DNA of 64,000 bases from the NCBI GenBank assembly GCA_965246995.1, contig OZ252008.1, positions 64,993 through 128,992 on the forward strand. Reading direction: 5' to 3'. The DNA is from Vicinamibacterales bacterium. GTDB lineage: Bacteria; Acidobacteriota; Vicinamibacteria; Vicinamibacterales; UBA8438. Below the pieces are notes generated by a model. The model made no database searches, was not told the origin of the DNA, and saw only the letters and a program-made list of their open reading frames with translations. The stretch's first letter is position 1. Every line of letters begins with the position of its first letter. The position numbers and the translations under genes are program-made. This document shows positions 26,669 to 46,374 of the stretch, piece by piece.

Positions 26669-28738
26669 CTACGGATCGACGGTAATCTCCCCGACGGCCC
26701 AGGGATGATCCTCGCAGTGATAGAGAAAGGTCCCGGGATCGTCGAAGGTGACGAAGCCCCACAGTCCCGGCCCGAGCGTGTCGGTGCTCCAGCTCCCGTC
26801 GCGCGCCGCCACCGTGTGCGCCATCTCGCCGTTGTTGGTGAACCGCACGCGCGTGCCGGCGGTGACGCGGGCCCGGACCGGGTTGAAGTTGTGCTCGTCG
26901 AATGCGTAGCGCCGGCCGCCGACGGAACCTCTCGGGTTCTCGAGGAGCGTGGCGGTCTCGATCTCGTTCGTCTCACGCGGCGTAGGACCGCTCGGCTGAT
27001 CGTCCACCGGCGGGTCGGGCGACGGTTCCCCCCGCGCCGGCACCGTGCCGTCGAGCGTGAACGCCCACAGTTCGGGTCCCATCGCGATAGCGATGTACTG
27101 CGTGCCGTCCAGCGTGTAGGTAGCGGCCGGGCCGGGCCGGAGGCGCGCACCTTCTTCGCTGGTCCGGAACGCCCACCGGCGGGCGCCGGTCCGGACGTCG
27201 TACGCCTCCATCTGCCCGCCGGGCGAACCGCGGAACAACAGGCCGCCCGCCGTGACGAGCGGACCGCTGGTGCCGAGAAACGCGCTCGGCATCTCTTTCT
27301 TCCAGACGACGCGCCCGGTCCGCGTGTCGACGGCGGCCAGGATCCCGACCGCCTCAGGCAGGGTCAGATGGAACCGGGCGGTGTTCCAGACGAACGGATC
27401 CGCGAACCGGCGGGCGCGGCCGACATGCGCGCGACCCTGGGCGTAGACGTAGCCGGTTTGGGGTGAGAACGCCATCGGCGTGACCCGTACCAGCGGAATC
27501 GGCACGCCGGGCGCGACGACGGTCTGTTCGTCGACCGACGGCGGCGTATAGCTGCTGCAATTGAGCTGGAACGGCGGCGGCACGCGGTCGCGCCAGTAGG
27601 AACACTCCGGGAGGATGCTCTCGGTACGGGTCGGGAACGGCTGGGTCGGCACGGTGCGCTGCTGGTCGTCCTGCGGCACCGGCCGGTCCTCGATCGGCAG
27701 GAGCGGCTCGCCGGTCTCCCGGTTGAAGAAAAATAGGTAGCCGTCGGCCCGCATCGCGGCGACCGCCTTGACCGGTTCGCCGTCCATCGTGATGTCGTAC
27801 AGCAGCAGCGGCGTGGCGATGTCGGCGTCCCAGATATCGTGGCGCACCACCTGGTAGTGCCACCGCCGCTCGCCCGTCTCCATGTCGAGCGCGAGGACGG
27901 AAGCCGTGAACAGGTTGTCCCCGTCGCGGAGTTCGCCGCCGAACATCGGCACGGGGTTGCCGGTCGAGAAATAGACCATTCCCAGGTCCGGGTCGACCGT
28001 TCCCTGCAGCCAGACGCCACCGCCGCCGAACTGCCAACTGTCGTTGTCCTGCGGCCAGGTGTCATGGCCGAACTCGCCCGGACGCGGCACGATGAAGAAA
28101 GTCCACTCCACCTCACCGGTCCCGGCATCGAGAGCCACCACCCGGCCCTGTCCGCCGATATCACCATTCGCGATGCCGACAAACACCTTGCCGCGCGCGT
28201 ACATGGGCGCGGTCGTCACCGTCTCGCCCGGCGCCGGTGGGACCTCTCCGACCGGCGTCGCCCAGACCAGTTCGCCGTCTTCCCGATCGAGCGCGATAAC
28301 TTCCCCGCTCCGCGTGCCGAAAAAGATCCGGTCACCGCCCATCGCGACGCCTTGCCACGACGGAACCCGTCCCGCCTCGGGATCCGGCTCCCAGCGCCAG
28401 ATTGGATCGCCCGTCCGCGCATCGAACGCGAAGACGTTCGCGCCGCCGGTCAGGTAGATGACGCCGTCCTGCACCACCGTGGTCGCGCGCGACGACGCGC
28501 CGCCGGGGAGCGGGGTCACCCACGCCGCACCAAGGCGATCGACGGTGTCGGTCGCCACCGCGTCGAGGGTGGAGTAGCGCGAGCTGGACCAGTTACCGCC
28601 GGTGAAGGGCCAGTCGGTGGACGGATAGCCGCGGCCCGGATCAGGGGCCTGCCCGGCGAGGCCGCCCGCGAGCAGCAGGACCGTGATCACCGATGCCGCA
28701 ACGGCGACGATGGCGCGATAGGGTCGAGGCGTGATCAT
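26669..28738 (-). CDS. PQQ-type eight-bladed propeller dehydrogenase fused to a C-terminal amicyanin-like cupredoxin domain (paralogue A)
   Basis: ATG at 28738 is preceded by GGAGAG. After a signal anchor come propeller blocks: GGNWSSSRYSTL, VVQDGVIYLTGGANVFAFDARTGDPIWRW, GRVVALDAGTGEVEW, GGGVWLQGTVDPDLGMVYFSTGNP, NLFTASVLALDMETGERRWHYQVVRHDIWDAD, DGYLFFFNRETGEP. The C-terminal ~95 aa read RVRFTNNGEMAHTVAARDG...GTFLYHCEDHPWAVGEITVDP, which aligns with the amicyanin ligand loops (..MPHNV.. / YHCTPHPFMRGKVVVE). Confidence 0.8.
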   Translation of the reverse strand: MITPRPYRAIVAVAASVITVLLLAGGLAGQAPDPGRGYPSTDWPFTGGNWSSSRYSTLDAVATDTVDRLGAAWVTPLPGGASSRATTVVQDGVIYLTGGANVFAFDARTGDPIWRWEPDPEAGRVPSWQGVAMGGDRIFFGTRSGEVIALDREDGELVWATPVGEVPPAPGETVTTAPMYARGKVFVGIANGDIGGQGRVVALDAGTGEVEWTFFIVPRPGEFGHDTWPQDNDSWQFGGGGVWLQGTVDPDLGMVYFSTGNPVPMFGGELRDGDNLFTASVLALDMETGERRWHYQVVRHDIWDADIATPLLLYDITMDGEPVKAVAAMRADGYLFFFNRETGEPLLPIEDRPVPQDDQQRTVPTQPFPTRTESILPECSYWRDRVPPPFQLNCSSYTPPSVDEQTVVAPGVPIPLVRVTPMAFSPQTGYVYAQGRAHVGRARRFADPFVWNTARFHLTLPEAVGILAAVDTRTGRVVWKKEMPSAFLGTSGPLVTAGGLLFRGSPGGQMEAYDVRTGARRWAFRTSEEGARLRPGPAATYTLDGTQYIAIAMGPELWAFTLDGTVPARGEPSPDPPVDDQPSGPTPRETNEIETATLLENPRGSVGGRRYAFDEHNFNPVRARVTAGTRVRFTNNGEMAHTVAARDGSWSTDTLGPGLWGFVTFDDPGTFLYHCEDHPWAVGEITVDP

Positions 28739-28836
28739 GACGCTCTCCTCTCTCAGGTCTCCCGTCCGCACCACGATATACCCGAACGGTTACACTAGCC
28801 GGCGCATCAATCTTCAAGTCTGAACGGAGTCCTGTC

Positions 28837-29307
28837 ATGAAGTGTCTGCTGCTCGGTCTCGGACTCGTTCTCGCTCTGGTCACGCCGGCGTTCGCCCAGG
28901 GTCCGGCCGCGACGGTCGCCGACCTCGCGTGGATGACGGGCAACTACCAGGGCGACACCGGCAACGGGACGCTCGAGGAAAACTGGGCGGAGCCGGACGG
29001 CGGTTCCATTGCGTCGCTCGTCCGGTCGACGGCGGGTGGAGCCACCAACATGATCGAGCTCATCGTCGTGGAAGAGACGGGCAATTCGCTGACACTGCGC
29101 CTCAAGCAGTGGGATCCGGGCATGAAGCCGCGGGCCGACGGCTTCCAGGTGATGGAGCTGATCGAGATCGGCGACAAGAAGGTGCGCTTCACGAACACGG
29201 GTGAGGGCGGATTGCAGCAGCTCGGCTACAGCCTCGTCGGCGATCAGTTCACCATCTCCGTCAAGACGGCCCAGGGTGAATTCGACATTCCCCTGACCCG
29301 GCAATAG
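28837..29307 (+). CDS. Small secreted protein of unknown function (DUF6265-like by recollection)
   Basis: The signal peptide is MKCLLLGLGLVLALVTPAFAQG, followed by a ~135-aa beta-rich domain (LAWMTGNYQGD...LEENWAEPDGGSI...LTLRLKQWD...). The family name is from memory only. Confidence 0.45.
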   Translation: MKCLLLGLGLVLALVTPAFAQGPAATVADLAWMTGNYQGDTGNGTLEENWAEPDGGSIASLVRSTAGGATNMIELIVVEETGNSLTLRLKQWDPGMKPRADGFQVMELIEIGDKKVRFTNTGEGGLQQLGYSLVGDQFTISVKTAQGEFDIPLTRQ

Positions 29308-29333
29308 CCAGACTGTCGAAAGGACCACAACGG

Positions 29334-31079
29334 ATGCGTCTGCTCCCTCGACCCGTTTGCGGCGTGATCGCGGCGTGCCTGCTCGCGGGAGCGTTCGTCT
29401 CGGCACAGTCCCCCACCGACGACTACACGCCGGTCACCGAGCAGATGCTCGTCGACCCCCCGGGGGACGACTGGCTGATGTGGCGGCGCAGCTACAACCA
29501 CTGGGGTCACAGCCCCCTCGACCAGATCGACACCACTAATGTCGGTGACCTGCGCCTCGCCTGGGCGTGGACCATGGCGGAGGGCCTGCAGGAGACCACG
29601 CCGCTCGTCCACGACGGCATCATGTTCCTGGTCCAGGCGTGCGACTACGTCGAGGCGCTCGACGTTCGCGACGGCACCCGGCTGTGGGAATACCGCCGGC
29701 CGCGGGTCGAGCACGCCGCCACGCTGGCCTGCGCGAACCGCAACGGGACCCTCTACGAAGACAAGCTGTTCATCGGCACCCACGACGCCCATCTGGTGGC
29801 GCTCGACGCGCGCACCGGCGAGGTGGTGTGGGACCAGACGGTCGGCGACTGGGAGGTCGGCCAGCACTACTCCGGCGGGCCGCAGATCATCAAGGGCCGG
29901 GTGGTGGCCGGGATGTCGGGCTGTTACTACCTCAATACGCGCTGCTGGATTTCGGCCCACGACGCCGAGACCGGGGAGGAGGCGTGGCGCACCTACACGA
30001 TTCCCCGCGCCGGCGAGTTCGGCTACGACACCTGGGGTGACATCCCGGACGAGATGCGGCGCGGCGGCTCCTCATGGAATGCGCCGAGTTACGACCCCGA
30101 GCTGAATCTGATCTACGCGGGCGTCGGGGTGCCGATTCCGTGGGGCTCGGTGCAGCGCGGCACCGGCGACGGCGATGTCCTCTACACGAATTCCACCCTC
30201 GCAATCGACGCCGACACGGGCGAAATCGTGTGGTACTTCCAGCACACCCCGAACGACGAGTGGGATCTCGACCATCCGTACGCCCGGCTCATCGTCGAGA
30301 CCGAGGTGTCGCCGGACCCCGACGCGGTCGAATGGTTGAACGGCGGGATCACGCCCGGCTCGCGGCGGAAGATCGTGACCGGCATCCCGGGCAAGACGGG
30401 TATCGTCTGGGCGCTCGATGCCGCCACCGGGGCGTTCCTCTGGGCCGAGCCGACGAACCGCCAGAACGTGGTCGCCGATGTCGACGCCGAGAGCCGCCGC
30501 GTGATCCTCAACGAGGCGCTCAAGTTCCCGCAGGTCGGCGAGCCGGTCTACGTCTGTCCGAGCCTGACCGGCGGCATCAACTGGAACGCGACCGCCTACC
30601 ACCCGGGCACCAATGCCCTGTATGCGCCGACCAACAACGTCTGCATGAACATCACGCTCAACGAGTTCCGTGACCGCACGGGCTTCCACCATGGGTCGGC
30701 GGGAGCCACGCGCGAGGTGGCGCCGGACGTCGACGGGCAGGTCGGCATGCTGACGGCGATGAATATGGCGACGGGTGGAACGCTATGGGTTCATCGCCAG
30801 CGGGCCGGCATCGGCGGTTCCGTCCTGACCACCGGCGGCGGGCTGGTGTTCGTGACCGATGACGCGCGCCGCTTTCGAGCGTTCGACGCGCAGACCGGCG
30901 AGATCCTCTGGGAGCAGATCCTCAACTCGAGCGCCGGTGGCTTCCCGGTGAGCTACATGCACGACGGCGTGCAGTACGTCGCCATCGCGGCCGGAGGCGG
31001 CGTCAACTACCGGATGGTCACGCCGGAAGTCCAGCAGCCGCCGCGCGGCAACATACTCTACGTCTTCCGGCTTCGCTGA
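29334..31079 (+). CDS. PQQ-dependent dehydrogenase, eight-bladed propeller (methanol/ethanol-family-like), no fused redox domain
   Basis: A signal peptide is followed by DDWLMWRRSYNHWGHSPLDQI, TPLVHDGIMFLV, VALDARTGEVVW, ISAHDAETGEEAW, SSWNAPSYDPELNLIYAGVG, LAIDADTGEIVWYFQHTPNDEWDLD, VWALDAATGAFLW, LTAMNMATGGTLW and FRAFDAQTGEILW (repeated W-motif blades). Confidence 0.8.
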   Translation: MRLLPRPVCGVIAACLLAGAFVSAQSPTDDYTPVTEQMLVDPPGDDWLMWRRSYNHWGHSPLDQIDTTNVGDLRLAWAWTMAEGLQETTPLVHDGIMFLVQACDYVEALDVRDGTRLWEYRRPRVEHAATLACANRNGTLYEDKLFIGTHDAHLVALDARTGEVVWDQTVGDWEVGQHYSGGPQIIKGRVVAGMSGCYYLNTRCWISAHDAETGEEAWRTYTIPRAGEFGYDTWGDIPDEMRRGGSSWNAPSYDPELNLIYAGVGVPIPWGSVQRGTGDGDVLYTNSTLAIDADTGEIVWYFQHTPNDEWDLDHPYARLIVETEVSPDPDAVEWLNGGITPGSRRKIVTGIPGKTGIVWALDAATGAFLWAEPTNRQNVVADVDAESRRVILNEALKFPQVGEPVYVCPSLTGGINWNATAYHPGTNALYAPTNNVCMNITLNEFRDRTGFHHGSAGATREVAPDVDGQVGMLTAMNMATGGTLWVHRQRAGIGGSVLTTGGGLVFVTDDARRFRAFDAQTGEILWEQILNSSAGGFPVSYMHDGVQYVAIAAGGGVNYRMVTPEVQQPPRGNILYVFRLR

Positions 31080-31177
31080 AACGCGCGGCTCCGGCAGCGC
31101 GTAGTTGCTGCGGAACGCCTGGGAACGGCCCCTACCGTTGACGGACCGGGGGCTTGGGTAATACCGTATTACCTCTC

Positions 31178-31420
31178 ATGGCGACAGTCTCCTTCAAGGT
31201 CAGTGACGAGGAAGCCCGCCTGATAAGGACCCGGGCCAGGAGGGAGGGCGTCAGCGTCTCGGAGTACCTCCGGCGCCGGGCGCGTCTCGCCATGCCCGCG
31301 CCCAGCTCGCCCAGGCTTGTGCGGTGTCCGCATACGGGCGCGATGATCTTCGCCGCCCCGGAGGACCAGCCCCCGCTCACGACAGACACGGTGCAGGACC
31401 TTCTCGCGGACTTCCCGTGA
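31178..31420 (+). CDS. vapB: Ribbon-helix-helix antitoxin (VapB-like), second copy in window
   Basis: MATVSFKVSDEEARLIRTRARREGVSVSEYLRRRA is an RHH fold. The stop overlaps the PIN gene start (GTGA). Confidence 0.7.
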   Translation: MATVSFKVSDEEARLIRTRARREGVSVSEYLRRRARLAMPAPSSPRLVRCPHTGAMIFAAPEDQPPLTTDTVQDLLADFP

Positions 31421-31830
31421 AGTACCTCCTGGACGTCAACGTCCTCGTCGCATGGGGGTGGTCCGATCATGTCGCCCATGAGCAAACCGCCAAGTGGATC
31501 GCCGCTACGATGAAGCAGAGGGCCTCCCGGTTGCTGACATCGCCGATCCCGGAGCTTGGGTTCGTCCGCGTGTCGGTTCAACGCACGGCGGGACGCGTGA
31601 CGGTCAGTGCGGCGGGAGACGCGCTGGCAGGCATGCTGCGCAGCCTCGGTGCACACCATGCCTTTCTGCCCGACGACCAGCCGGCCCGCGGGTTCCCCGA
31701 GTGGTGTCGTCAGGCGTCGCGCACCACGGACGCCCACGTTCTGGAGCTAGCGAAGGCGCACGGGGCGAGACTCGCCACGCTCGACGAACGTATTCCTGGA
31801 GCGTTCCTCGTTCCCGGCTCGCGCGAGTGA
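31417..31830 (+). CDS. vapC: PIN-domain toxin (VapC-like), second copy
   Basis: GTG at 31417 gives (M)KYLLDVNVLVAWGW...ELGFVRV...TTDAHVLELAKAHGARLATLDERI, with the acidic PIN residues in the expected places. Confidence 0.75.
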   Translation: MKYLLDVNVLVAWGWSDHVAHEQTAKWIAATMKQRASRLLTSPIPELGFVRVSVQRTAGRVTVSAAGDALAGMLRSLGAHHAFLPDDQPARGFPEWCRQASRTTDAHVLELAKAHGARLATLDERIPGAFLVPGSRE

Positions 31831-31834
31831 CGCG

Positions 31835-34018
31835 CTACGGTAGCGCGTAGGCCGCCAGCGAGCCGGGGAACCCGGTCTGGATGCTGCCGACCTGCACGAC
31901 GATGTACTGCTTGCCCTCGTGCAGGTAGGTCATCATGCCGTACTGGCCGGGAGCCGGAAGCTCGACGCTCCCGCGGATCTCACCGGTGTACTTGTCGCGG
32001 CCATGCAGCATCGACGGCGCGTCGGGGACAATCTGCCGCGTCCCCTCGCTCAGGGAGCGGGTCTGCACGAGCAGGTCGCCGGTCACCATCTGAATCGAGA
32101 AGCCGGCGCCGCCGGCGTTCGGAATATCGATGCCCGCGAGCCGCGGATTGTCGCGGATCACCTGAGCCGTCTCTCCGACCGGTAGCGACCAGGCCTTCTC
32201 CCCGGTATTCATCTGGTACGCCGTGAGCTGATTGTCCATCGGCTTGTAGAGCCGCAGGCCGTCGAGGGTCGGCAGGCCCGTTACCGAAACGAACGGCTCC
32301 TGCTCGGGGGTGGGCCGGTGGAAGCCGCCCGGCAGCCACGCGGCGACCGTGGTTCCCGTGGTGGGGGTCGAATTGGGGGTGGCGCCTCCGGGGCCGGGCC
32401 GCGCGTAGTCCGGATCGTCCTCGTCGACGCCGCCGGTCGGCCGCATGAACGACCGCGCGTTGCAGGTGCGGCGATGCGAATTGAACATCATCCCGGTGCT
32501 CGGGTCGGCGACCGGCGGGTGCGGAATGACGTTGCCGCCGCCGAGGCAGCCGACGTTGTTGTAGAAGTCGTTCGTGTGGTTCTGCGGAAGTGCCGGCACA
32601 TACAGGCCGCCCACGCGGTAGTGCTCGAGGATCCTCAGTGCTTCCTGCTTCAGCTCCGGCGTGTAGTCGATGACGAATTCCTCGGTCAGGCCATTCAGCA
32701 CAATGGGGTCGACCGGCTCGGGCCGGGTCGGATACGGCTGCCGCGGCGACGTGTAGTTGCCCGGCACCTCGGTCTGGATGACCCGCCGATCCTCGATCGG
32801 CCAGATTGGCTCGCCCGTCTCCCGGTTGAAGGCGAAAACCAGTCCCTGCTTCGTGTTCTGGATCAGCGCCGGAATGGTCTCGCCGTCCACGGTCAGATCC
32901 ATCAGCATCGGCGGGGTCGGCAGGTCGTAGTTCCACTGATCGCTACGGTGGATCTGGAAGTGCCAGCGGCGCTCCCCGGTCCGGACGTCCAGCGCGAGGA
33001 CGCAGCCCCCGAACAGGTTGTCGCCCGGCCGGTGTCCCGCGTAGCTCTGGATGGTCGAGGCGTTCGTCACCAGATAGACGAGTCCGAGTTCCGGATCGGC
33101 CGACGCCGGCGCCCAGGTCGACATGTCGCCCGACCACTGCCACGCGTCGTTGTGCCACGTCTCGTGACCGAACTCGCCCGGGCGCGGGATCATGTGGAAC
33201 TTCCAGAGCACTTCACCGGTCGCCGCATCGACCCCCATCACGTCGCCCGGAACGTTCTCGATCCGCGTCTGCCCGTAACTTGGCTGATGGCCGACCAGGA
33301 CCACGACGACGCCGTTCACCACGATCGGCGGCGACGAGCTGGTCACCATCCCCAGTTCGCGCGGAATGCCGTAGCCGGGGTCGTAGCTGGCGGAACGATC
33401 CTGCCAGCGCCCCCAGTCCTCGACGAGCGGCGGGATCAGGTCCAGCCCGCCGCTCTCCGGAAACCCCTCCAGCGGGACCGCCCTTCCCCAGTTCTCGAGC
33501 GGTCGCCCCGTCTCGGCGTCGAGCGCCCAGAGGAAGAAGGCGGGGCTCGTGACGAAGATGACGCCGCGGCCGTTCACTTCCGCGTAGGCGACACCCTTGC
33601 CGTAGGCCTGACGCGGCGAGCGCAGGTGCCGGACGGTTTCCGGCTCGCGGAACGTCCAGAGTGTCTCGCCGGTCGCCGGATCGATCGCCACCACCTGCCG
33701 GCGGGGCGAGGCGACCGTGTAGAGGACGCCGTCGACGTAGATCGGCGTGGCGCGGTTGAAGTAGTCGAGATTCGGACCGAAGTTGTCTCCCCGCCAGGTC
33801 CAGGCCACCTCGAGGTCGGAGAAGTTGCCACCGTTGATCTGATCGAGCGACGAGGAACGCGTATGGCCCACGTCGCCCCCGAGGTAACGCCACTCGCCGT
33901 TCTCGGTCCCGGTCAGGCGCTGTGCCTGCGCGGTGGCCGCGGCCAGCAGCGCGACGGCGAAGACGCCGGCGAGGACTCCGATGCGGGCGGGGGTCTGCGA
34001 TCTGAAGAATCCAGGCAT
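31835..34018 (-). CDS. PQQ-type eight-bladed propeller dehydrogenase (glucose-dehydrogenase-like, soluble), 727 aa
   Basis: A signal peptide is followed by GEWRYLGGDVGHTRSSSLDQI, TPIYVDGVLYTV, VVAIDPATGETLW, LWALDAETGRPL, VMGVDAATGEVLWKF, PGEFGHETW, LVYLVTNAS, CVLALDVRTGERRWHFQIHRSDQWNYD, LVFAFNRETGEPIW and LTAYQMNTGEKAW. Confidence 0.75.
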   Translation of the reverse strand: MPGFFRSQTPARIGVLAGVFAVALLAAATAQAQRLTGTENGEWRYLGGDVGHTRSSSLDQINGGNFSDLEVAWTWRGDNFGPNLDYFNRATPIYVDGVLYTVASPRRQVVAIDPATGETLWTFREPETVRHLRSPRQAYGKGVAYAEVNGRGVIFVTSPAFFLWALDAETGRPLENWGRAVPLEGFPESGGLDLIPPLVEDWGRWQDRSASYDPGYGIPRELGMVTSSSPPIVVNGVVVVLVGHQPSYGQTRIENVPGDVMGVDAATGEVLWKFHMIPRPGEFGHETWHNDAWQWSGDMSTWAPASADPELGLVYLVTNASTIQSYAGHRPGDNLFGGCVLALDVRTGERRWHFQIHRSDQWNYDLPTPPMLMDLTVDGETIPALIQNTKQGLVFAFNRETGEPIWPIEDRRVIQTEVPGNYTSPRQPYPTRPEPVDPIVLNGLTEEFVIDYTPELKQEALRILEHYRVGGLYVPALPQNHTNDFYNNVGCLGGGNVIPHPPVADPSTGMMFNSHRRTCNARSFMRPTGGVDEDDPDYARPGPGGATPNSTPTTGTTVAAWLPGGFHRPTPEQEPFVSVTGLPTLDGLRLYKPMDNQLTAYQMNTGEKAWSLPVGETAQVIRDNPRLAGIDIPNAGGAGFSIQMVTGDLLVQTRSLSEGTRQIVPDAPSMLHGRDKYTGEIRGSVELPAPGQYGMMTYLHEGKQYIVVQVGSIQTGFPGSLAAYALP

Positions 34019-34107
34019 GATGGGTCCATTCTAGGCGCTTGCGCCGTAGAAGTTTCGCGCCAGCGAAACTTCCAACGCGCCCGCAAGGGCGCGCTAGCGG
34101 GGCACTC

Positions 34108-36167: not shown

Positions 36168-36255
36168 GACGCCCTCCTGACAGTCGAGTGTAGCCCGGGA
36201 CCGGTATAATCGACGGCAACTCGTCCACCGGCGCCTTTCGAAGCGGGGTACTCAG

Positions 36256-37257: not shown

Positions 37258-37325
37258 CCCGTCGAGTTCCTGCGTCGTCGCTTGTCCGACGGATCGGCGT
37301 GTCTTCTCAAGTGAAGGAGTCCGTG

Positions 37326-38387
37326 ATGAATCGTCTTTCCTGTGTGCATGTCGGGTTGGGCGCGGTGGTCTTGGCGGCATGCGTCATCCTGGCGCCGGTC
37401 GCGGGGTGGTCCCAGACGGCGGCGGAGGAGGATTGGGTATCGCCCCGGACACCGTGGGGCGACCCTGATGTCGGCGGCGTCTGGAACAGCTCCACCGTAA
37501 CGCCGCTCCAGCGTCCGGAGGAGCAGGCCGGCAAGGAATTCCTGACCGAGGAGGAAGCGGCGGCCATCGAGCAGGGCGTCGTCGACGCCAACGCCCGCGC
37601 GAACGCGCCCAGTGTCGTTCGCACCGAACCCCTGCCGGTAGGTGGCAACGTCGGCGGCTACAACAGCTTCTGGCTGGATCGGGGGACGACGGTCGTCCCG
37701 ACGCGGCGCACGTCGCTCGTCATCGACCCGCCGAACGGGCGCCTGCCCGCGCTCACGCCGGAGGCCGAGGCGTACATCACGTCGCCGGAGCGGCAGCGGC
37801 TGAAGGCGGTGCGGGAGGGGATGGTGCCGGCCGACTCTTACGAGCAGTTCGACTATGGCGACCGCTGCATCTGGTATCGCGGCGTCCCTTCGCTGCCCAC
37901 CGCCTACAACAACAACTACCACCTCGTTCAGACCGAGGATGTCATCGCGATCGTGCAGGAGCACATCCACGACGTCCGCTTCATTCACCTCGACGGCCGC
38001 CCCGCGATCGACGATCGCATCAGTCAGTTCGGCGGTCATTCGCGCGGACACTGGGAGGGCGACACGCTGGTTGTCGAGACGACCCACTTCGGCGACCGGG
38101 CCTACCTGTTCTCGTCCGGCCCGGGACCGCAGGGCGGCACGAACTGGGATCTCAGCCCGGCCCTGCGGGTCGTGGAGCGATTCACCCGCGTGGGACCCCG
38201 GACGCTCGACTACGAGTTCACGGTGGACGATCCGAACGTCTGGACCCGCCCGTGGACCGGGTCCTCACCGTGGGCCCGCGGCGACGGACCGATGTTCGAG
38301 TACGCGTGCCACGAGGGCAACTACGGGATGCAGAACATCCTCGCCGGCTCGCGCGCCGAGGAGGCGAGGGTCAGGGATCGACGGTAA
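37326..38387 (+). CDS. Secreted protein of unknown function, FEYACHEGN motif (paralogue 2)
   Basis: ATG at 37326 gives MNRLSCVHVGLGAVVLAACVILAP.... The protein is colinear with 36256..37257 over its whole length. Its 3' end overlaps the convergent PQQ paralogue C by 17 nt. Confidence 0.55.
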   Translation: MNRLSCVHVGLGAVVLAACVILAPVAGWSQTAAEEDWVSPRTPWGDPDVGGVWNSSTVTPLQRPEEQAGKEFLTEEEAAAIEQGVVDANARANAPSVVRTEPLPVGGNVGGYNSFWLDRGTTVVPTRRTSLVIDPPNGRLPALTPEAEAYITSPERQRLKAVREGMVPADSYEQFDYGDRCIWYRGVPSLPTAYNNNYHLVQTEDVIAIVQEHIHDVRFIHLDGRPAIDDRISQFGGHSRGHWEGDTLVVETTHFGDRAYLFSSGPGPQGGTNWDLSPALRVVERFTRVGPRTLDYEFTVDDPNVWTRPWTGSSPWARGDGPMFEYACHEGNYGMQNILAGSRAEEARVRDRR

Positions 38388-40452
38388 TCTCGGCGATCGC
38401 CCAGGGGTGCTCCTCGCAGTGGTAGAGGAACGTGCCTGCCTGGTCGAACGTGACGTAGACCGACATCGCCGGCGCCAGCGTGCCGGTCGTCCAGCTCCCG
38501 TCGCGCGCCGCCACCGTATGGGCGACCTCGCCATTGTTCTGGAACCGCAGCCGGTCACCGGCCGCCACCCGCGTGCGCACCGGGTTGAATGCATGCTCGT
38601 TCAGCGCGTTGCGCCGGCCGCCGTACGACCAGGAGGGATTCTCGACCAGCGTGCCGGTCTCCACCAGGTCCGTCGCGCGCGGCGGTGGACCGATCCAGCG
38701 GACCAGATCGTCAATCTCCCCCGGGACCGCCGGTCCCCGCGCCGGAACCTCCCCGTCGAGCGCGAATGCCCAGAGCTCGCGTTCGAACGACGCCGCGATG
38801 TACTGCCGGCCGTCCACCTCGAAGGACATAGCCGGGCCGGGACGCTGCCGGGTCCGCGGCGCGCCCGCCTGGAAGCCCCAGACCTGCTCCCCGGTCCGCG
38901 CGTCGTAGGCCTCGATCAGACCGTCCGCCGCCGCCCAGAACATCAGTCCGGTCGCGGTCAGTAGCGGGCCGCTGGTCGAGAGGCGCGCGCCACGGAACTC
39001 GTTCTTCCAGACCACGCGGCCGGTCCGCCCGTCGACGGCGGCCAGGATGCCAACGGACTCGGGGAGCGTCAGCCGGAGGTAGCCGCTCGCCCGGTTGTCC
39101 GAGATCCAGGGATCCTCGAAGCGGAACGCGCGGCCGACATGCCCGCGCCCCTGGGCGTAGATGTAGCCGGTCTGCGGCGAGAACGCCATCGGCGTGACGC
39201 GCACCATCGGGATCGGCACGCTCGGCGCGACCACCGCATGTTGATCGATTCCCGGCGGCGTGTAGGCGCTGCAGTTGAGCGTGAACGGCGGCGGCACCCG
39301 ATCTCGCCAGAACGAACAGTCCGGCAGGATGCTCTCGACACCGACCGGGAACGGCTGCGTCGCCGCGGTCAGGAGGCGGTCGTCCTGCGGCACCGGCCGG
39401 TCCTCGAGCTCCACGATCGGTTCGCCCGTCTCGCGGTTGAAGAGGAAGAGATAGCCGTCGGCGCGAATCGCGGCGAGCGCCGGCACCGGCTCGCCGTCTA
39501 TCTCGGTGTCGTACAGCAGGACCGGTGTCGCGATGTCGGCGTCCCAGATGTCGTGGCGCACGACCTGGTAGTGCCAGCGGCGCTCGCCCGTCTCCATATC
39601 GAGCGCGAGAACCGATGCCGTGAACAGATTGTCGCCCGCCCGGATCTCGCCGCCGTACATCGGAACCGGATTGCCGGTCGAGAAATAGACCATGCCGAGG
39701 TCGGGATCGACCGTCCCGACCAGCCAGACGCCGCCGCCCCCCACCTGCCAGATGTCGGAATCCTGCGGCCAGGTGTCATGGCCGACCTCGCCGGGGCGGG
39801 GCACCACGAAGAAGGTCCAGAGGACTTCGCCGGTGCGCGCATCGAGGGCGTGGACCCGTCCCTGTCCCCCGCTGTCGCCGTTCGCGAGGCCGACGAACAC
39901 CTTGCCGCGCGCGTAGATCGGCGCCGTGGTGACCGTCTCGCCTTCCGCCTGCGGAACGCTGCCTACCGGGGTCGCCCAGACCAGCTCCCCCGTCTCCTGA
40001 TCGAGCGCGGCCACTTCCGCGCTCCGCAGTCCGATGAATACGTGGCCGTCGCCGAGGCCAACGCCCTGCCAGGACGGCACGCGCTGCGACGCGGGGTCCT
40101 CCGCCTGCCAGCGCCAGATCGGCTCGCCGGAGCGCGCGTCGAGGGCAAAGACGTTTGCACCCCCGGGCATATAGATGACACCGTCCTGCACGACGGGCGT
40201 CGCGCGCGACGAAACGCCGCCCGGAAACTCGGCCACCCAGGCGCCGCCCAGCCGGTCGATGGTGTCGGGGGCGATCTGGTCGAGCGTCGTATAGCGGGAA
40301 CTGGAGGTGTTCCCGCCCGCAAGCGGCCAGTCGGCAACCGGATAGCCCTGACCCGGTTCCGGCGCCTGTCCGACCAGGCCCGCCGTCAACGCGAAGACCC
40401 CCGCTACAACCACCGGAATTGCTATCCCGAATCGAAGGTGTGATCTGCTCAT
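38371..40452 (-). CDS. PQQ-type dehydrogenase fused to a C-terminal amicyanin-like cupredoxin domain (paralogue C)
   Basis: 693 aa, colinear with paralogue A (GGNTSSSRYTTLDQI, VVQDGVIYMPGGANVFALDARSGEPIWRW, HYQVVRHDIWDAD ...). The C-terminus reads RLRFQNNGEVAHTVAARDG...GTFLYHCEEHPWAIAEITVDP. Confidence 0.8.
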   Translation of the reverse strand: MSRSHLRFGIAIPVVVAGVFALTAGLVGQAPEPGQGYPVADWPLAGGNTSSSRYTTLDQIAPDTIDRLGGAWVAEFPGGVSSRATPVVQDGVIYMPGGANVFALDARSGEPIWRWQAEDPASQRVPSWQGVGLGDGHVFIGLRSAEVAALDQETGELVWATPVGSVPQAEGETVTTAPIYARGKVFVGLANGDSGGQGRVHALDARTGEVLWTFFVVPRPGEVGHDTWPQDSDIWQVGGGGVWLVGTVDPDLGMVYFSTGNPVPMYGGEIRAGDNLFTASVLALDMETGERRWHYQVVRHDIWDADIATPVLLYDTEIDGEPVPALAAIRADGYLFLFNRETGEPIVELEDRPVPQDDRLLTAATQPFPVGVESILPDCSFWRDRVPPPFTLNCSAYTPPGIDQHAVVAPSVPIPMVRVTPMAFSPQTGYIYAQGRGHVGRAFRFEDPWISDNRASGYLRLTLPESVGILAAVDGRTGRVVWKNEFRGARLSTSGPLLTATGLMFWAAADGLIEAYDARTGEQVWGFQAGAPRTRQRPGPAMSFEVDGRQYIAASFERELWAFALDGEVPARGPAVPGEIDDLVRWIGPPPRATDLVETGTLVENPSWSYGGRRNALNEHAFNPVRTRVAAGDRLRFQNNGEVAHTVAARDGSWTTGTLAPAMSVYVTFDQAGTFLYHCEEHPWAIAEITVDP

Positions 40453-40722
40453 CGCGGCGGCCTCCTGCGGGTGCGCGGCGCTCCGTTCCGGCGTCGCGAT
40501 CCGCGAGTGTAGCAGGTAGCAGGCGCGTCGTTTCCAACCGCGGGGAGAGCGGTTGCGTCGAGCGGCCGGGGCCGGATAGAATTCGCCCGGGCTGTGTGAT
40601 TTAGTGCGGCCCGAGACAGGGATGGCCCCTCAGGCATCGGTCGTGACGACCGGCGCCGTCTGGATTTCCAGCGGACCGAGGGGTCCGGACAAGCATGAAG
40701 CTGTACGAAAGGAGTCACGACG

Positions 40723-42567
40723 TTGGCTGACGTGACGACGACGGAAACCGCCTCCCCCGCGGCAGGCGGGAGCGAAGGACACGACGCCGCACACGGGCAC
40801 GGTGAGCACGAGCATCACGAGCTCGGCTTCTGGCAGACCTACGTCTTCTCGGTCGATCACAAGGTAATCGGCATCCAGTACGCCGTGACCGGCCTGCTCT
40901 TCCTGTTGTTCGGCTTCACGCTGATGGTGGTGATGCGCTGGCAGATCGCCTATCCCGGCGAGCCGATTCCCTTGATCGGCACCTGGCTGGGCGCGGAACG
41001 GGCGCCGGACGGCATCATGTTGCCGGAGTTCTACAACCAGTTGGGCGCGATGCACGGCACCATCATGGTGTTCCTCGGCGTCGTTCCCCTCGCCGTCGGC
41101 GGCTTCGGCAACTTCGTCCTGCCGCTGCAAATCGGAGCGCCCGACATGGCGTTCCCGAAGCTCAACATGGTGAGCTACTGGAGCTTCTTCGTGGGCGGCG
41201 TCGTCATGTTCGCCAGCTTCTTCGTGCCGGGCGGAGCCGCCAACTCCGGCTGGACCTCGTATGCGCCCCTGTCCGTGTTCGCCACGACCGGGCAAACGAT
41301 GTGGCTTGCGGGGATGATGTTCCTGATCACGTCGTCACTGCTCGGCTCGGTCAACTTCATCGTCACGACGATTCAGTTGCGCGCACCGGGGCTTTCGTTC
41401 ATGCGGCTGCCGTACTTCGTCTGGGCGCAGCTCGTCACCGCGTTCCTGCTGCTGCTCGCCTTTCCTCCGCTCGAGGCAGCCGGCGTACTGCAGTTGATGG
41501 ACCGGGTGGCAGGCACCAGCTTCTTCATGCCGAGCGGCCTCGTCTACGCCGACTCCCCGGTCGAGGCGAGCGGTGGCGGCAGTGTGCTGCTCTGGCAGCA
41601 CCTCTTCTGGTTCCTGGCGCACCCGGAGGTGTACGTCCTTATCCTCCCGGCCCTCGGCATCGTCACCGATATCGTGGCCAACAACACGCGCAAGCCGATC
41701 TGGGGTTACAGCGTGCTGGTCTACTCGACCGTCTTCCTGGGCTTCATGTCGTTCATCGTCTGGGCGCACCACATGTTCCTGACCGGCATGGGAACGACGA
41801 TGAGCTCATTCTTCCAGACGACCACGATGATCATCTCGATCCCGTCGGTCATCATCCTGTCGTCGCTCTTCATCTCGCTCTACGGAGGATCGATCCGGTT
41901 CACCGTGCCGATGCTCTTCGCCCTGGCTTTCCTGCCGATGTTCGGGATCGGCGGACTGACCGGGCTTCCACTCGGCCTCTCCGCACCGGACATCCACCTG
42001 CACGACACCTACTACGTCATCGGGCACTTCCACTACGTCGTGGCGCCGGGGACGCTGATGGCGCTGTTCGGGGGCGTCTACTACTGGTTCCCGAAGGCGA
42101 CGGGCCGCAAGATGAACGACCTGCTGGGCCGCATTCATTTCTGGGGTTCGTTCATCGCGATCAACGTCGTCTTCATGCCGATGTTCTACCAGGGTTTGTC
42201 CGGGATGAACCGCCGGATGTACGACGGCGGCGCGCAGTACACGATGAACGCGGACGTGCTGTGGCTGAACGAGGTGATCAGCATCGCGGCGTGGGTGCTG
42301 GGCCTCTTCCAGTTGCCGTTCATCTACAACTTCTTGAACAGCATCAAGCGCGGGGAGAAGGTAGGCGACAACCCGTGGCAGGCGACCACGCTCGAATGGC
42401 AGGCGCCGTCGCCACCGCCGCACGGGAACTTCGCCACGCCGCCGCGGGCGTACCGCGGCCCGTACGAGTACAGCGTGCCGGGCGCGGCCAGTGACTTCAT
42501 GATGCAGGGCGAGGCGGATCCCCCCAGCTCGGGGACCCCGGCGGCGGCCAAGCCGGCCGGCGCCTGA
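40723..42567 (+). CDS. ctaD: Cytochrome c oxidase subunit I (A-type haem-copper oxidase)
   Basis: TTG at 40723 lies 8 nt after AAGGAG. Motifs include DHKVIGIQY, QLGAMHGTIMVFL, WQHLFWFLAHPEVYVLILPALG (CuB His and the cross-linked Tyr, with the D-channel Glu in HPEVY), VWAHHMF and YYVIGHFHYV. Confidence 0.95.
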   Translation: MADVTTTETASPAAGGSEGHDAAHGHGEHEHHELGFWQTYVFSVDHKVIGIQYAVTGLLFLLFGFTLMVVMRWQIAYPGEPIPLIGTWLGAERAPDGIMLPEFYNQLGAMHGTIMVFLGVVPLAVGGFGNFVLPLQIGAPDMAFPKLNMVSYWSFFVGGVVMFASFFVPGGAANSGWTSYAPLSVFATTGQTMWLAGMMFLITSSLLGSVNFIVTTIQLRAPGLSFMRLPYFVWAQLVTAFLLLLAFPPLEAAGVLQLMDRVAGTSFFMPSGLVYADSPVEASGGGSVLLWQHLFWFLAHPEVYVLILPALGIVTDIVANNTRKPIWGYSVLVYSTVFLGFMSFIVWAHHMFLTGMGTTMSSFFQTTTMIISIPSVIILSSLFISLYGGSIRFTVPMLFALAFLPMFGIGGLTGLPLGLSAPDIHLHDTYYVIGHFHYVVAPGTLMALFGGVYYWFPKATGRKMNDLLGRIHFWGSFIAINVVFMPMFYQGLSGMNRRMYDGGAQYTMNADVLWLNEVISIAAWVLGLFQLPFIYNFLNSIKRGEKVGDNPWQATTLEWQAPSPPPHGNFATPPRAYRGPYEYSVPGAASDFMMQGEADPPSSGTPAAAKPAGA

Positions 42568-42618
42568 CGAGCGGACAAATCGAACGGATGAACGAAGGAC
42601 AGGGCAGAACGTCGAGAC

Positions 42619-43215
42619 ATGGATATTCCATACATCGTTGATGAACGGCCGGATACCGGGCTGACGAACGTCAAGCTGGGCATCTGGCTCTTCCTCGCGT
42701 CGGAGGTGATGCTCTTCGGCGCGCTCTTTTCTTCCTATGTGCTGCTGCGCCTGATGGCGCCGGAGGGCACGTGGCCATTCGGCGTGGACGTGCTGAACGT
42801 GCCACTCGGGACGTTCAACACCGCGGTGCTGATCGGGTCGAGCGTCACGATGGTGATGGCCTACGCGTCGCTCAAGATGGACGACCTGGGCGGTTACAAG
42901 AAGTACATGGGGACGACGATCGGCTTGTCGCTCCTCTTCATGGTGGTCAAGGCGTTCGAGTACAGCCACGAGTTCGACATCGGAAACTTCCCGTGGACGA
43001 GCACCTACCTTGCCATCTACTTCACGATGACCGGACTGCACGCGATGCACATCATCGCCGGAGTGATCGTCAACACCTACCTCCTGCTGCCCGGCTCGAA
43101 GATGTGGTACACGAACAAGGAGCAGTTCACGAACCGGATCGAAGCCGCCGGCCTCTACTGGCACTTCGTCGATCTGGTATGGATCTTCCTGTTCCCGGTG
43201 CTCTACCTGCTGTAG
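42619..43215 (+). CDS. ctaE: Cytochrome c oxidase subunit III (short, five-helix form)
   Basis: [19 protein letters not shown]..., [18 protein letters not shown] and [23 protein letters not shown] are the hallmark subunit III blocks. Confidence 0.9.
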
Positions 43216-43239
43216 CTCGCGGAGGACGACAAGCGAACC

Positions 43240-43584
43240 ATGAGTGAAGACGTTCAGGCGCACATTCGGATATACATGAAGGTGGCCGGCGCGCTCGGCG
43301 TGCTGACCGCGGTGACCGTGGCAATCTCCTACATCGACTTCTGGGGCGTGCCGATCGCCGTTATCGTGGCCCTGGTCATCGCGGCGACGAAGGGCTCGCT
43401 GGTGGCCAGTTTCTTCATGCACCTCATCGGCGAGCGGAAGATGATCTACTGGTCGCTGCTCCTGACCGTCGTTTTCTTCCTGGGGCTCATTTTCCTGCCG
43501 CTGCTCGGCCATGCCGACAAGCTCGGCGAGTACTACACCGTGCCGAACGCGAACGCGCCGGCGCCGGCTGCGCCCGCCCACTGA
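43240..43584 (+). CDS. Oxidase subunit IV, prokaryotic COX4/CyoD-like
   Basis: 114 aa with three hydrophobic helices. IRIYMKVAGALGVLTAVTV...AVIVALVIAATKGSLVASFFMHL matches the pattern of bacterial subunit IV (K..LV...FMHL). Its position after subunit III also fits. Confidence 0.65.
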   Translation: MSEDVQAHIRIYMKVAGALGVLTAVTVAISYIDFWGVPIAVIVALVIAATKGSLVASFFMHLIGERKMIYWSLLLTVVFFLGLIFLPLLGHADKLGEYYTVPNANAPAPAAPAH

Positions 43585-43610
43585 GGAACGCGAAACCGAC
43601 AGAGGCCACC

Positions 43611-43820
43611 ATGTCGCTGCGATCCATTCATCTCGTCTTCATCGGGGCGTCCATACTGCTGGCGGCGCTCACTACCTGGTGGGGTACCGCGATGTTCCTG
43701 AGCGGCCGCGGCGGCAGCGGATACCTGCTGTTCGCCGGCGGGTCGCTCGCGGCGGTGATCGGGATGACGGCCTACGCGGTGCTGTTCGTTCGGAAGACGC
43801 GCGCGATCGGAATGCGGTGA
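43611..43820 (+). CDS. Small two-helix membrane protein, unknown function, inside the oxidase operon
   Basis: 69 aa: MSLRSIHLVFIGASILLAALTTWWGTAMF...LLFAGGSLAAVIGMTAYAVLFV. It has an AGAGG-type RBS and lies in the tight operon spacing between subunit IV and the next small ORF. Confidence 0.5.
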   Translation: MSLRSIHLVFIGASILLAALTTWWGTAMFLSGRGGSGYLLFAGGSLAAVIGMTAYAVLFVRKTRAIGMR

Positions 43821-43840
43821 CGGTCGCGGAGGGTTCTGCC

Positions 43841-44119
43841 ATGAAGAGAATCTCGACAGCTACGATGGCGGCGGCGCTCGTCATGCTCGCGCCCGCGGTG
43901 GCGTTGGCCTGTCCGATCTGCTTCGGCGCCGATCCCGACTCTGCGGAAGCGCAGAGCCTGAACTGGGCCGTCTTCACACTGCTCGGCGTTACCGGTGGTG
44001 TGCTGAGCGGCTTCGTCGGATTCATGTTTCACCTGTTAAAACGGTCCCGGCAGGCGCTCGGGAACGAGGACGCATTCGACGCCACGGACCATCGTGGCGA
44101 TGCGGGAGGAGTTTCGTAG
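43841..44119 (+). CDS. Small exported/anchored protein with CPICFG motif, unknown function, inside the oxidase operon
   Basis: ATG at 43841 follows GGAGGG. The sequence is MKRISTATMAAALVMLAPAVALA-CPICFGADPDSAEAQSLNWAVFTLLGVTGGVLSGFVGFMF... (leader, CxxC, one C-terminal helix). The stop TAG abuts the ATG of subunit II (TAGATG), indicating translational coupling. Confidence 0.6.
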   Translation: MKRISTATMAAALVMLAPAVALACPICFGADPDSAEAQSLNWAVFTLLGVTGGVLSGFVGFMFHLLKRSRQALGNEDAFDATDHRGDAGGVS

Positions 44120-44866
44120 ATGGGCGAGTTGCTTGGACTGCCGATTCAGGCGTCGGCTCACGCCGGCGAGATCGACGAGATGATCATCCTCATCCACTAT
44201 CTGATGGCCGTGCTGTTCATCGGATGGGGAGCGTTCTACGTCTACACGCTGTTCCGGTTCCGCGCGAGCGCGAACCCGACCGCCAACTACAAGGGCGTGA
44301 CCAGTCACACTTCCAGCTACCTGGAGTGGGCGGTGGCGGCCATCGAGGCAGTCCTGCTGGTCGGATTCGCCATCCCGGCATGGGCGCACCGCGTCAACGA
44401 CATCCCGCCGACCGGGGAAGCGACCGTCGTCAACATGATCGGGAAGCAGTTCGAGTGGATCTCGCACTACCCCGGCGCGGACGGCCGGTTCGGGCAGCGC
44501 GACCTCAGTCTGATCACCCCTACCAACGTGATCGGGCTCGATCGGAGCAGTGCGAACGCCGCCGACGATATCATGACTGTCAACCAGCTGAACATGCCGG
44601 TCGACAAGCCGATCATCGTCTACCTGTCATCGCAGGATGTCATCCACAGCTTTGGCATCACCGAGATGCGCGTGAGGCAGGATGCAATCCCCGGCATCCA
44701 GGTACCGGTCTATTGGGTGCCGACGCAGACGGGCGAGTACGAAGTGAATTGCTCGCAGCTCTGCGGTCTCGGCCACTACCGCATGCGCGGCTTTGCCGAG
44801 GTGATGAGCCAGGCCGACTACGACGCGTGGCTCGCCGAAGAAGCTTCGTTCCTCTCCGGTAACTGA
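44120..44866 (+). CDS. ctaC: Cytochrome c oxidase subunit II with complete CuA site and no cytochrome c domain
   Basis: Two N-terminal helices are followed by a cupredoxin domain: DVIHSFGITEMRVRQDAIPG...YEVNCSQLCGLGHYRMRG. This gives CuA ligands H, C, C, H, M, with Gln in the CxExC position as in ba3-type CNQYCGLGHQNM. There is no CxxCH anywhere in the 248 aa. Confidence 0.85.
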   Translation: MGELLGLPIQASAHAGEIDEMIILIHYLMAVLFIGWGAFYVYTLFRFRASANPTANYKGVTSHTSSYLEWAVAAIEAVLLVGFAIPAWAHRVNDIPPTGEATVVNMIGKQFEWISHYPGADGRFGQRDLSLITPTNVIGLDRSSANAADDIMTVNQLNMPVDKPIIVYLSSQDVIHSFGITEMRVRQDAIPGIQVPVYWVPTQTGEYEVNCSQLCGLGHYRMRGFAEVMSQADYDAWLAEEASFLSGN

Positions 44867-44889
44867 CCCGTCGAGACCGGGCGGAGCTC

Positions 44890-45264
44890 CTAGTCGCGGG
44901 ACGCGGCCAGCATCGCCTGCAGGTCCGCGACAGCCCCTTCCAGCGCGTCTGCGGCGGCAGCGATGTCCGTCGTGGCCTCGCTACGCGCGGCAGTGATCCG
45001 TTCCTGGATGGGACCGATCGGGAGTTCCGCCTGAGCCGCCGCGATCATCAGGCGGAGTGCTTCGACGCTGAGCCGTTGGAAACGGGCCCCGTCGGCTTCC
45101 TCACCCGGGCTGGGGGAGACCGCGGGCGGCTGCGGGGAGAGCTCCGTGGGTGGCGGCGCCTCCGTCTCCACGGCGCCGGCAGCGGGGTCGTCGCTCGCGC
45201 TGCATGCCGCCGCGGCGAGTGTGACGGCCAGTGCCACGGTACGGATGGCGGGGGCAGCGGTCAT
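44890..45264 (-). CDS. Small lipoprotein, unknown function
   Basis: ATG at 45264 gives MTAAPAIRTVALAVTLAAAC (lipobox), then a Pro/Glu-rich linker and an Ala-rich helical tail. It starts 4 nt after the stop of the upstream DsbA-like gene. The listed 280-aa ORF is an out-of-frame extension. Confidence 0.5.
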   Translation of the reverse strand: MTAAPAIRTVALAVTLAAAACSASDDPAAGAVETEAPPPTELSPQPPAVSPSPGEEADGARFQRLSVEALRLMIAAAQAELPIGPIQERITAARSEATTDIAAAADALEGAVADLQAMLAASRD

Positions 45265-45268
45265 GGAG

Positions 45269-46339: not shown

Positions 46340-46374
46340 GCGGCCGACTGTACACCCCGTCCGCACCGGCGTCC

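Follow-up and report, generated by a model that had tools for sequence, protein, structure and literature searches.

PQQ dehydrogenases beside a cytochrome oxidase operon

We analysed a 64,000-nt stretch of contig OZ252008.1 from a soil or water acidobacterium of the order Vicinamibacterales (hereafter the window; G+C ~68%, and ~1% of a 5-8 Mb genome), which carries a cluster of dehydrogenases of the pyrroloquinoline quinone (PQQ) type next to an operon for a haem-copper oxidase. Real genes were picked by their third-position G+C content (GC3). Pfam places five genes with the PQQ propeller domain PF01011 within 13.8 kb (26669-40452), and three of the five, paralogues A, C and D, end in a cupredoxin domain. 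Paralogue C is divergent from the oxidase operon, coxI-coxIII-coxIV-orf69-orf92-coxII (40723-44866), across an intergenic region of 270 bp (40453-40722). The initial annotation of this DNA had described this layout, together with five PQQ dehydrogenases, three of them with cupredoxin, and a further PQQ gene of the soluble glucose dehydrogenase (sGDH) type, and had read it as a cytochrome-independent route in which electrons pass from substrate to PQQ, to the fused blue copper, to the CuA centre of the oxidase and on to O2. The layout and the gene inventory are borne out, with the amendment that paralogue D is frameshifted.

Among the fusions, paralogue A (26669-28774, minus strand; 701 aa) matches PF01011 at E 1e-82 and both Cupredoxin_1 and Copper-bind over residues 626-699; it carries the motifs WDAD and YHCEDHPWAVGE, and has orthologues of 82-89% identity in many Vicinamibacterales loci. 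Paralogue C (38371-40452, minus strand; 693 aa) is similarly built, with PF01011 at E 2e-82 and Cupredoxin_1 over residues 617-691. In paralogue D (34108-36167, minus strand; PF01011 E 2e-77 for the N-terminal part) the cupredoxin end lies in another frame than the N-terminal 496 codons, as 1 base is missing from a C-run at ~34697/34698; with one C added, D becomes an intact 686-aa protein that is 69-71% identical to A and C. The extra base (given as G) is present in contigs of the public runs X1, X2 and X3, whereas run X7 matches the window, so that the frameshift is a polymorphism or a very recent lesion rather than the mark of an old pseudogene.

The other two paralogues have no cupredoxin. 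Paralogue E (29334-31079, plus strand; 581 aa; PF01011 E 4e-58) carries the motif WDLD and has orthologues of ~93% identity. Paralogue B (31835-34018, minus strand; 727 aa) matches the full PF01011 profile at E 2e-127, and its top NCBIfam match is TIGR03074 over profile positions 323-783; judged by these matches, it is nearest the glucose/quinate/shikimate type, but without the membrane anchor. It reads WNYD against W-D-x-D in the other four, which places Asn at the aligned position of the catalytic Asp. B is nonetheless better conserved than the other four, at 90-93% identity across many genomes. The sGDH-type gene (20609-22039, plus strand, in a GC3-supported frame of 20273-22039) encodes a homologue of the six-bladed PQQ glucose/sorbosone dehydrogenases, with PF07995 (GSDH) at E 2.4e-21 over residues 196-406. 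Two small genes lie within the cluster: one for a DUF6265 protein between A and E (28837-29307, plus strand), the other for a ribbon-helix-helix or NikA-like protein between E and B (31142-31420, plus strand).

The propeller of the fusion proteins

Among the candidates scored, 2,077 are homologues of paralogue C at E<=1e-20, and the best 120 of these are of full length (667-745 aa) and 66-89% identical to it. Its top sequence match in the PDB is PedH (6zcv), a lanthanide-dependent ethanol dehydrogenase, at E 5e-58. The AlphaFold2 model of C (mean predicted local distance difference test score, pLDDT, 76.8; predicted template modelling score 0.81) has 1kv9, 1yiq, 6zcv and 1kb0 as its nearest folds, with 1kv9, 6zcv and 6dam at E 1e-36 to 1e-38. 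The PF01011 matches of A and C, together with the model of C, identify the two as eight-bladed propellers of the PQQ type. Against TIGR03075, the model for the methanol/ethanol dehydrogenase family, A scores 311 bits, C 299 and E 400, all under the cut-off of 480; by these scores A, C and E form a divergent clade and are not trusted members of that family.

The motif WDAD is present in A, C and D and in 118 of the 120 best homologues of C, and aligns with WDFD in PedH, in which we take the two acidic residues to be the catalytic Asp and the lanthanide-specific Asp. The lanthanide-type Asp-x-Asp is thus found in A, C and D as WDAD and in E as WDLD. In an alignment of 40 homologues, D193, D304 and D306 of C are invariant. 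The comparison of C with PedH further shows that C retains the metal-ligand Asn (in GNP), which is nearly invariant among the homologues, as well as Asp304 and the stacking Trp. The vicinal Cys-Cys pair, by contrast, occurs in none of the 120 homologues, and C reads RVPSWQG where PedH has RPCCDVINRG.

A cupredoxin domain that has lost its axial methionine

The C-terminal domain of C (residues ~620-693) is modelled with high confidence (pLDDT 88-95). Its sequence is nearest that of the C-terminal cupredoxin of the copper nitrite reductase 9cck, followed by plastocyanin and amicyanin. The three strong copper ligands, H645, C679 and H682 (His/Cys/His), are invariant among the 40 aligned homologues, and the C-terminal motif [YF]HCxxHPWA[ILV]GE is found, with few exceptions to its wording, in 112 of 120. 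The equatorial ligands of a type-1 site are therefore in place within a cupredoxin fold, and the domain is predicted to bind copper. At the position of the axial Met (HP-x-M), the 112 proteins with the motif have HPWA instead: the residue is Ala in 108, Met in three and Ser in one. It is in keeping with this pattern that the top amicyanin match is the engineered M98A mutant, 2idq.

We also searched with the cupredoxin domain by itself against 1.84 billion representative sequences, which gave 7,582 matches. The top matches carry 3-12 cupredoxin copies in tandem and keep the canonical HTVT...C..HP.M. Since Met is canonical in the wider family, the cupredoxin fused to the PQQ propeller is best described as a Met-to-Ala variant of an otherwise normal type-1 family. 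Four of the tandem proteins (P0361, P0369, P0395 and P0458) are 400-3,670 aa long and have Pro-rich linkers and a canonical copper site in each copy; such proteins could be multi-copper electron 'wires'.

Relation to known quinoproteins and cupredoxins

The best structural matches of the C model are type II quinohaemoprotein alcohol dehydrogenases (ADHs), namely ADH IIB (1kv9) and ADH IIG (1yiq) of Pseudomonas putida HK5 and the quinohaemoprotein ethanol dehydrogenase (qhEDH, 1kb0) of Comamonas testosteroni. In both groups a soluble periplasmic propeller is joined by a linker to a small one-electron carrier domain at the C-terminus. Unlike the type II enzymes, however, the fusions have a cupredoxin in place of haem c, no CxxCH, no Cys-Cys pair and an Asp-x-Asp motif, and they are only ~25-27% identical to them. 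ADH IIB hands its electrons to azurin, itself a cupredoxin.

PedH (6zcv) and XoxF (6dam, 4mae) provide the second comparison, in that the W-D-x-D of the fusions aligns with W-D-F-D of PedH. These enzymes differ from the fusions in having no fused carrier, in using a separate cytochrome c and in keeping both the Cys-Cys pair and the Glu ligand; the metal preference of the fusions is a prediction from their sequence. With the amicyanin and plastocyanin cupredoxins and with 9cck, finally, the fusions share the fold family and the spacing of His (HTV), Cys and His in C-x-x-H-P, and in 9cck, too, the cupredoxin forms the C-terminal end of a periplasmic redox enzyme. The axial Met of amicyanin and plastocyanin, which the wider natural family keeps, is replaced by Ala in ~93% of the fusions.

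A literature search returned no paper that describes a PQQ dehydrogenase fused to a cupredoxin; PQQ and cupredoxin are mentioned together in one study, but as separate proteins of Methanosarcina (PMC6315138). The fusions make up a large 'quinocuproprotein' family in the Vicinamibacterales, a variant of the PQQ alcohol dehydrogenases that seems not to have been described before. Some members of this order, which is among the most abundant Acidobacteriota in soil and sea, carry dozens of PQQ dehydrogenases (PMC11996626).

The oxidase operon and its right flank

The first gene of the operon, coxI (40723-42567, plus strand; PF00115 E 8e-130), encodes AHPEVY (residues 299-304), WAHH (347-350) and HFH (435-437), which together identify subunit I as A1-type. 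It is followed on the same strand by coxIII (42619-43215; PF00510 E 2e-24) and coxIV, for the prokaryotic subunit IV (43240-43584; PF03626 E 1e-10). Between coxIV and coxII are two small plus-strand genes that add to the initial annotation. Of these, orf69 (43611-43820) encodes a two-helix membrane protein of 69 aa, and a 69-aa gene occupies the same place in the relatives' oxidase loci L079-L086; orf92 (43841-44119) encodes a protein that begins with a signal-like sequence, contains a CPIC motif and has a single helix at its C-terminus, and a gene of 92-97 aa is found in the corresponding position in relatives. Neither could be assigned to a family (orf92 has no NCBIfam match), and the two may be assembly or copper-handling factors.

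The product of coxII (44120-44866, plus strand; 248 aa) matches PF00116 only. Its alignment to Paracoccus 1qle_B reveals a complete CuA site, with all the ligands (H, C, C, H, M) present in DVIHSF ... CSQLCGLGHYRM, and no haem c domain, just as was first reported. More than 7,000 homologues were found. The best 120 are nearly all 248 aa long and none has a haem domain; GKQFEW is present in 117 of them, CSQLCGLGHYRM in 119 and CxxCH in none. With 248 aa and no CxxCH in any of these homologues, CoxII lacks the fused cytochrome c domain that a caa3-type assignment would call for. In those Acidobacteriia that have been described, the oxidases are of the caa3 type and lie in superoperons with bc1 or alternative complex III (PMC8407424).

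The top PDB matches of CoxII are instead subunits II of the Paracoccus and Rhodobacter aa3 oxidases, which oxidise cytochrome c. The oxidase shares with those of Paracoccus denitrificans and Rhodobacter sphaeroides (1qle, 1ar1, 1m56) the same CuA site, the lack of haem c and the A1-type Glu of HPEVY, and differs from them in its gene order (coxI-III-IV-orf-orf-II) and in two substitutions: GKQFEW (residues ~107-112) places Phe at the Paracoccus electron-entry residue Trp121, with Glu at Tyr122, and within residues 212-223 there is Gln instead of Glu between the two CuA cysteines. A CuA subunit free of haem c is thus the ordinary aa3 form, and provides no argument for a cytochrome-free route.

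Downstream of coxII lie genes for a DsbA-like thioredoxin (45269-46612, minus strand), an FAD-linked oxidase (46375-48012, plus strand) and a copper-type P1B ATPase with YHS and HMBD domains (48398-51001, minus strand), all assigned by Pfam. These genes (45269-51001) also follow coxII in distant relatives and hence represent the truly conserved neighbourhood of the oxidase. Their role may be to supply copper and to form disulfides for CuA. Our scan of 40300-45300 for promoters and terminators found no sigma-70-like site, and terminator-like matches were at chance level.

The junction between the two gene sets is confined to a small clade

We then compared 19 proteins of the window by tblastn with the best 78 genomic loci that hold a relative of paralogue C, each taken with up to 10 kb on either side (the PQQ loci). 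All 78 come from Vicinamibacterales, Vicinamibacteria or unclassified Acidobacteria metagenome-assembled genomes, and the closest, L001, encodes a C-like protein 90% identical to that of the window. The cox genes stand beside the C-like gene in L001 only and are absent from the other 77. Approached from the oxidase side, a divergent PQQ-cupredoxin gene adjoins coxI in L084 and L085 (CoxII 90% and 86% identical), while the junction is missing from six further oxidase loci, L079-L083 and L086 (CoxII 77-82% identical). It is therefore confined to the window, L001, L084 and L085, whose CoxII proteins are at least 85% identical. The initial annotation had named in advance a neighbourhood not conserved in relatives as a finding that would refute its route, and this is what the six oxidase loci and the 77 PQQ loci reveal.

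The flanks tell the same story. To the left of the oxidase, L079-L083 and L086 have genes for an AAA ATPase, a TonB-dependent receptor, a VTT-domain protein and a serine dehydratase; to the right, as in the window, they have those for the DsbA-like protein, the FAD-linked oxidase, a holin-like protein, the copper ATPase (YHS, HMBD) and FtsX/MacB. The 7.59-Mb chromosome OZ242279.1 has its oxidase at 2.18 Mb, but the A/B/E island at 4.22 Mb and the gene nearest to C at 4.30 Mb, so that the two gene sets are ~2.1 Mb apart. Alignment by blastn with L079, L081 and L082 places the start of homology at 40681, inside the intergenic region and 42 bp before coxI, and the ~200 bp of that region proximal to coxI are kept only among the window, L001, L084 and L085. 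Taken together, the restriction to four close genomes and the break at 40681 indicate that the junction arose in the ancestor of a shallow clade; being clade-specific, the adjacency says nothing about function. The A/B/E cluster, on the other hand, is kept in many genomes (orthologues 82-93% identical), and no oxidase lies near the other fusion paralogues, which are A and D in the window and more than 60 in relatives.

There is a published precedent for a PQQ dehydrogenase gene next to oxidase genes, in that xoxF3 lies beside coxI, coxII and coxIII in Acidobacteria and Gemmatimonadetes; those clusters include XoxG and a further cytochrome c as well as XoxJ and CtaG (PMC10875860). The window differs from them in having no cytochrome, XoxJ or CtaG, in bearing a cupredoxin on the dehydrogenase itself, and in an adjacency limited to a small clade.

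Cytochromes, electron acceptors and the supply of PQQ

As the initial annotation had it, no GC3-supported gene of the 64-kb window encodes a CxxCH motif; a six-frame search gave only three matches, in open reading frames (ORFs) of 13-39 codons. In relatives' loci, however, there are 31 GC3-supported ORFs with CxxCH, which indicates that haem c proteins are made in this order. Most of these ORFs are large (355-1,777 aa), and two examples, from clusters 5 and 7, are proteins of 1,010 and 859 aa with two CxxCH motifs each. No cytochrome c gene was found in any of the oxidase loci examined. We further clustered 842 ORFs from the 78 PQQ loci in a search for recurrent neighbours. Around the 65 fusion genes, the ORFs that recur encode further PQQ dehydrogenases, an FAD oxidoreductase of the Tat type, a protein with ankyrin repeats and a periplasmic family that we refer to by its FEYACHEGN motif (see below).

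These findings bear on the route first proposed, in which the fused cupredoxin would dock on subunit II and reduce CuA directly, with C placed beside the oxidase for joint function. Several observations would suit it. The 270-bp divergent layout is kept in four related genomes, one of them with a rearranged right flank; CoxII and its 120 homologues have no haem c and mostly Phe rather than Trp at the entry site, which would allow for a donor other than a classical cytochrome c; the oxidase loci have no cytochrome c gene; a copper ATPase is conserved beside the oxidase; and contigs from RNA runs cover both gene sets. Cupredoxins are, moreover, thought to feed CuA oxidases elsewhere, as with plastocyanin in cyanobacteria, halocyanin in haloarchaea and sulfocyanin in Sulfolobales.

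We nevertheless regard direct reduction of CuA by the fusion as unlikely. The adjacency is absent outside the shallow clade, and its break point falls within the intergenic region; the haem-c-less CuA subunit is of the ordinary aa3 form, which uses cytochrome c; 64 kb without CxxCH are uninformative, given that relatives encode CxxCH proteins; and A, D and the more than 60 fusions of relatives have no oxidase nearby. In addition, the copper centre, having lost its axial ligand, may have a higher potential than CuA, and the docking of a 75-kDa soluble enzyme on CuA has no known precedent, the known dehydrogenases with a fused carrier passing their electrons to a small carrier protein. The RNA contigs have depths that come from mixed strains, which cannot show co-expression. 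CuA of the aa3 oxidase is accordingly one candidate acceptor, no better backed by these data than a small cytochrome c or a second cupredoxin with its gene elsewhere in the genome. We likewise think it improbable that the order has a branch free of haem c, in which a lanthanide/PQQ 'quinocuproprotein' with three-coordinate, Met-less copper would deliver electrons to CuA of the aa3 oxidase (with Phe at its entry site), whether directly or through cupredoxins only.

With regard to the cofactor, none of the scanned genes of the window belongs to the pqq biosynthesis families, as was noted initially, or to PqqU, and the window has no counterpart of the TonB-dependent receptor that stands on the left side of the oxidase in distant relatives. 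PqqU importers are reported for the class Vicinamibacteria, and the same study found no genes of pqq biosynthesis in those Acidobacteria that bear PqqU (PMC12124388). This makes scavenging the expected source, and PQQ is probably imported rather than made.

Two modules, probably joined by a recent rearrangement

The interpretation that we favour is that the region probably represents two independent, individually conserved modules, brought together by a recent, clade-specific rearrangement, with no evidence of a cytochrome-free route. The first module would be a paralogue cluster of periplasmic eight-bladed PQQ dehydrogenases, in which A, C and D bear a type-1-like cupredoxin at the C-terminus, where type II quinohaemoprotein ADHs carry haem c. 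The fusion enzyme has a signal-like N-terminal sequence and would be exported; an alcohol or a sugar would be oxidised at PQQ and a metal, probably a lanthanide given the Asp-x-Asp, and the fused copper centre, as a built-in exit, would then take the two electrons of the resulting PQQH2 in separate steps. From there, a periplasmic carrier whose gene lies elsewhere, either a cytochrome c or a further cupredoxin and either diffusible or membrane-anchored, would most likely take the electrons on to whichever terminal oxidase is present, in a manner that mirrors ADH IIB and azurin. The second module would be the order's stand-alone A1-type aa3 operon with its own conserved right flank, and the rearrangement, in a recent ancestor of the small clade, would have put module one against the left end of module two. 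Of the route proposed at first, then, the step from PQQ to the fused blue copper seems reasonable by analogy with the quinohaemoproteins, and is backed by the conserved architecture, the fold and the invariant ligands; the cytochrome-free link to CuA is not borne out by gene order.

Several observations weigh against this interpretation. None of the four genomes of the close clade has lost the junction, not even L085 with its rearranged right flank, and some selection for the PQQ-oxidase linkage is possible. The evidence on cytochromes c and pqq genes covers the 64-kb window and the relatives' loci rather than whole genomes, and no candidate acceptor (small cytochrome, cupredoxin or oxidase) is among the recurrent neighbours in the 78 PQQ loci. 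In C, the invariant Asp193 stands where characterised enzymes have a Glu as metal ligand, and the Arg beside PQQ is displaced in the alignment with PedH. Loops 194-196, 222-239, 262-277 and 304-307 of the otherwise good model of C have pLDDT <50, and the putative metal and PQQ ligands D193, N261, D304 and D306 sit on these loops; cofactors missing from the prediction may account for this. Finally, PQQ dependence is a putative trait of the fusions, the top NCBIfam match of A and C being to a model named 'acido-empty-quinoprotein group A' (TIGR04528), below its cut-off.

Some of these features could be taken to mean that the fusions are not working PQQ/copper redox enzymes at all, but have an 'empty' propeller without PQQ, or a cupredoxin that is copper-binding or structural only. 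The name of TIGR04528 itself suggests as much, as would the 299-311 bits of A and C against the cut-off of 480 of the true methanol/ethanol model, the missing Cys-Cys pair, the change of Glu to Asp and the displaced Arg, the missing axial Met and the window's lack of pqq genes. We consider this explanation very unlikely. The scores against TIGR04528 (306-322 bits) are far under its cut-off of 650, and the catalytic Asp, the extra Asp, the metal carboxylate, the stacking Trp and the three strong copper ligands are invariant, which would not be expected of a decayed site. The membrane glucose dehydrogenase is likewise without a Cys-Cys pair. The 66-89% identity over the best 120 homologues implies strong purifying selection, and PQQ import is documented for the class (PMC12124388).

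If blue copper takes the place of the haem c exit domain throughout this large and strongly conserved family, it would be a third way to link quinoproteins to the respiratory chain, next to a cytochrome, whether separate or fused, and ubiquinone. Carbon oxidation by these bacteria would then be tied to the supply of copper, and probably of lanthanides, rather than to that of iron and haem. The natural Met-to-Ala copper site should be of interest to copper-protein chemists, and PQQ-copper enzymes made of a single polypeptide to those who develop biosensors based on direct electron transfer.

Neighbouring genes and transcripts

Two paralogues of the uncharacterised periplasmic FEYACHEGN family are encoded between D and C, on the plus strand. 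The first (36256-37257; cluster 1) has counterparts in 31 of the 78 PQQ loci; the second (37326-38387) is missing from L001, where there is no homology to 37258-38343. The two are 42% identical and the family is ~350 aa long. It has at least 8,000 homologues, none of them named, and neither paralogue has a match in Pfam, NCBIfam or the PDB. C182 and A328-C-H-E-G-N333 are invariant, within the motifs GDRC and FEYACHEGN, and members of the family neighbour PQQ-cupredoxin genes in 12 of the 78 loci. The AlphaFold2 model of paralogue 2 (g37236) is poor (pLDDT 58); its beta core resembles calycins or fatty-acid-binding proteins weakly, at E ~2e-3, and is to be read as a hint only.

Contigs from four metatranscriptomic runs cover every gene of the island and of the operon at 95-99% identity to the window, so that both gene sets are transcribed in relatives. 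The transcript figures are contig depths of mixed strains and cannot show whether island and oxidase are co-expressed. An apparent hot transcript at 38276-38343 (20,000-30,000x) was rejected as a single transcript, since it consists of ~180 short contigs, from many strains or paralogues, stacked on a 40-nt motif that encodes FEYACHEGN. A scan of the whole window against Rfam gave no matches.

Away from these genes, the window contains regions of mobile or defence type (1544-10886, 17539-18072 and 62387-63721). They encode a restriction-modification fusion similar to MmeI/Eco57I (1544-5167), an 868-aa ORF across a stretch of 51% G+C (5164-7770), DDE transposases (8841-9263, 9441-10886 and 62387-63721) and an HTH_32 protein (17539-18072). 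The transposase genes at 8841-10886 and 62387-63721 indicate that the surroundings of the region are mobile.

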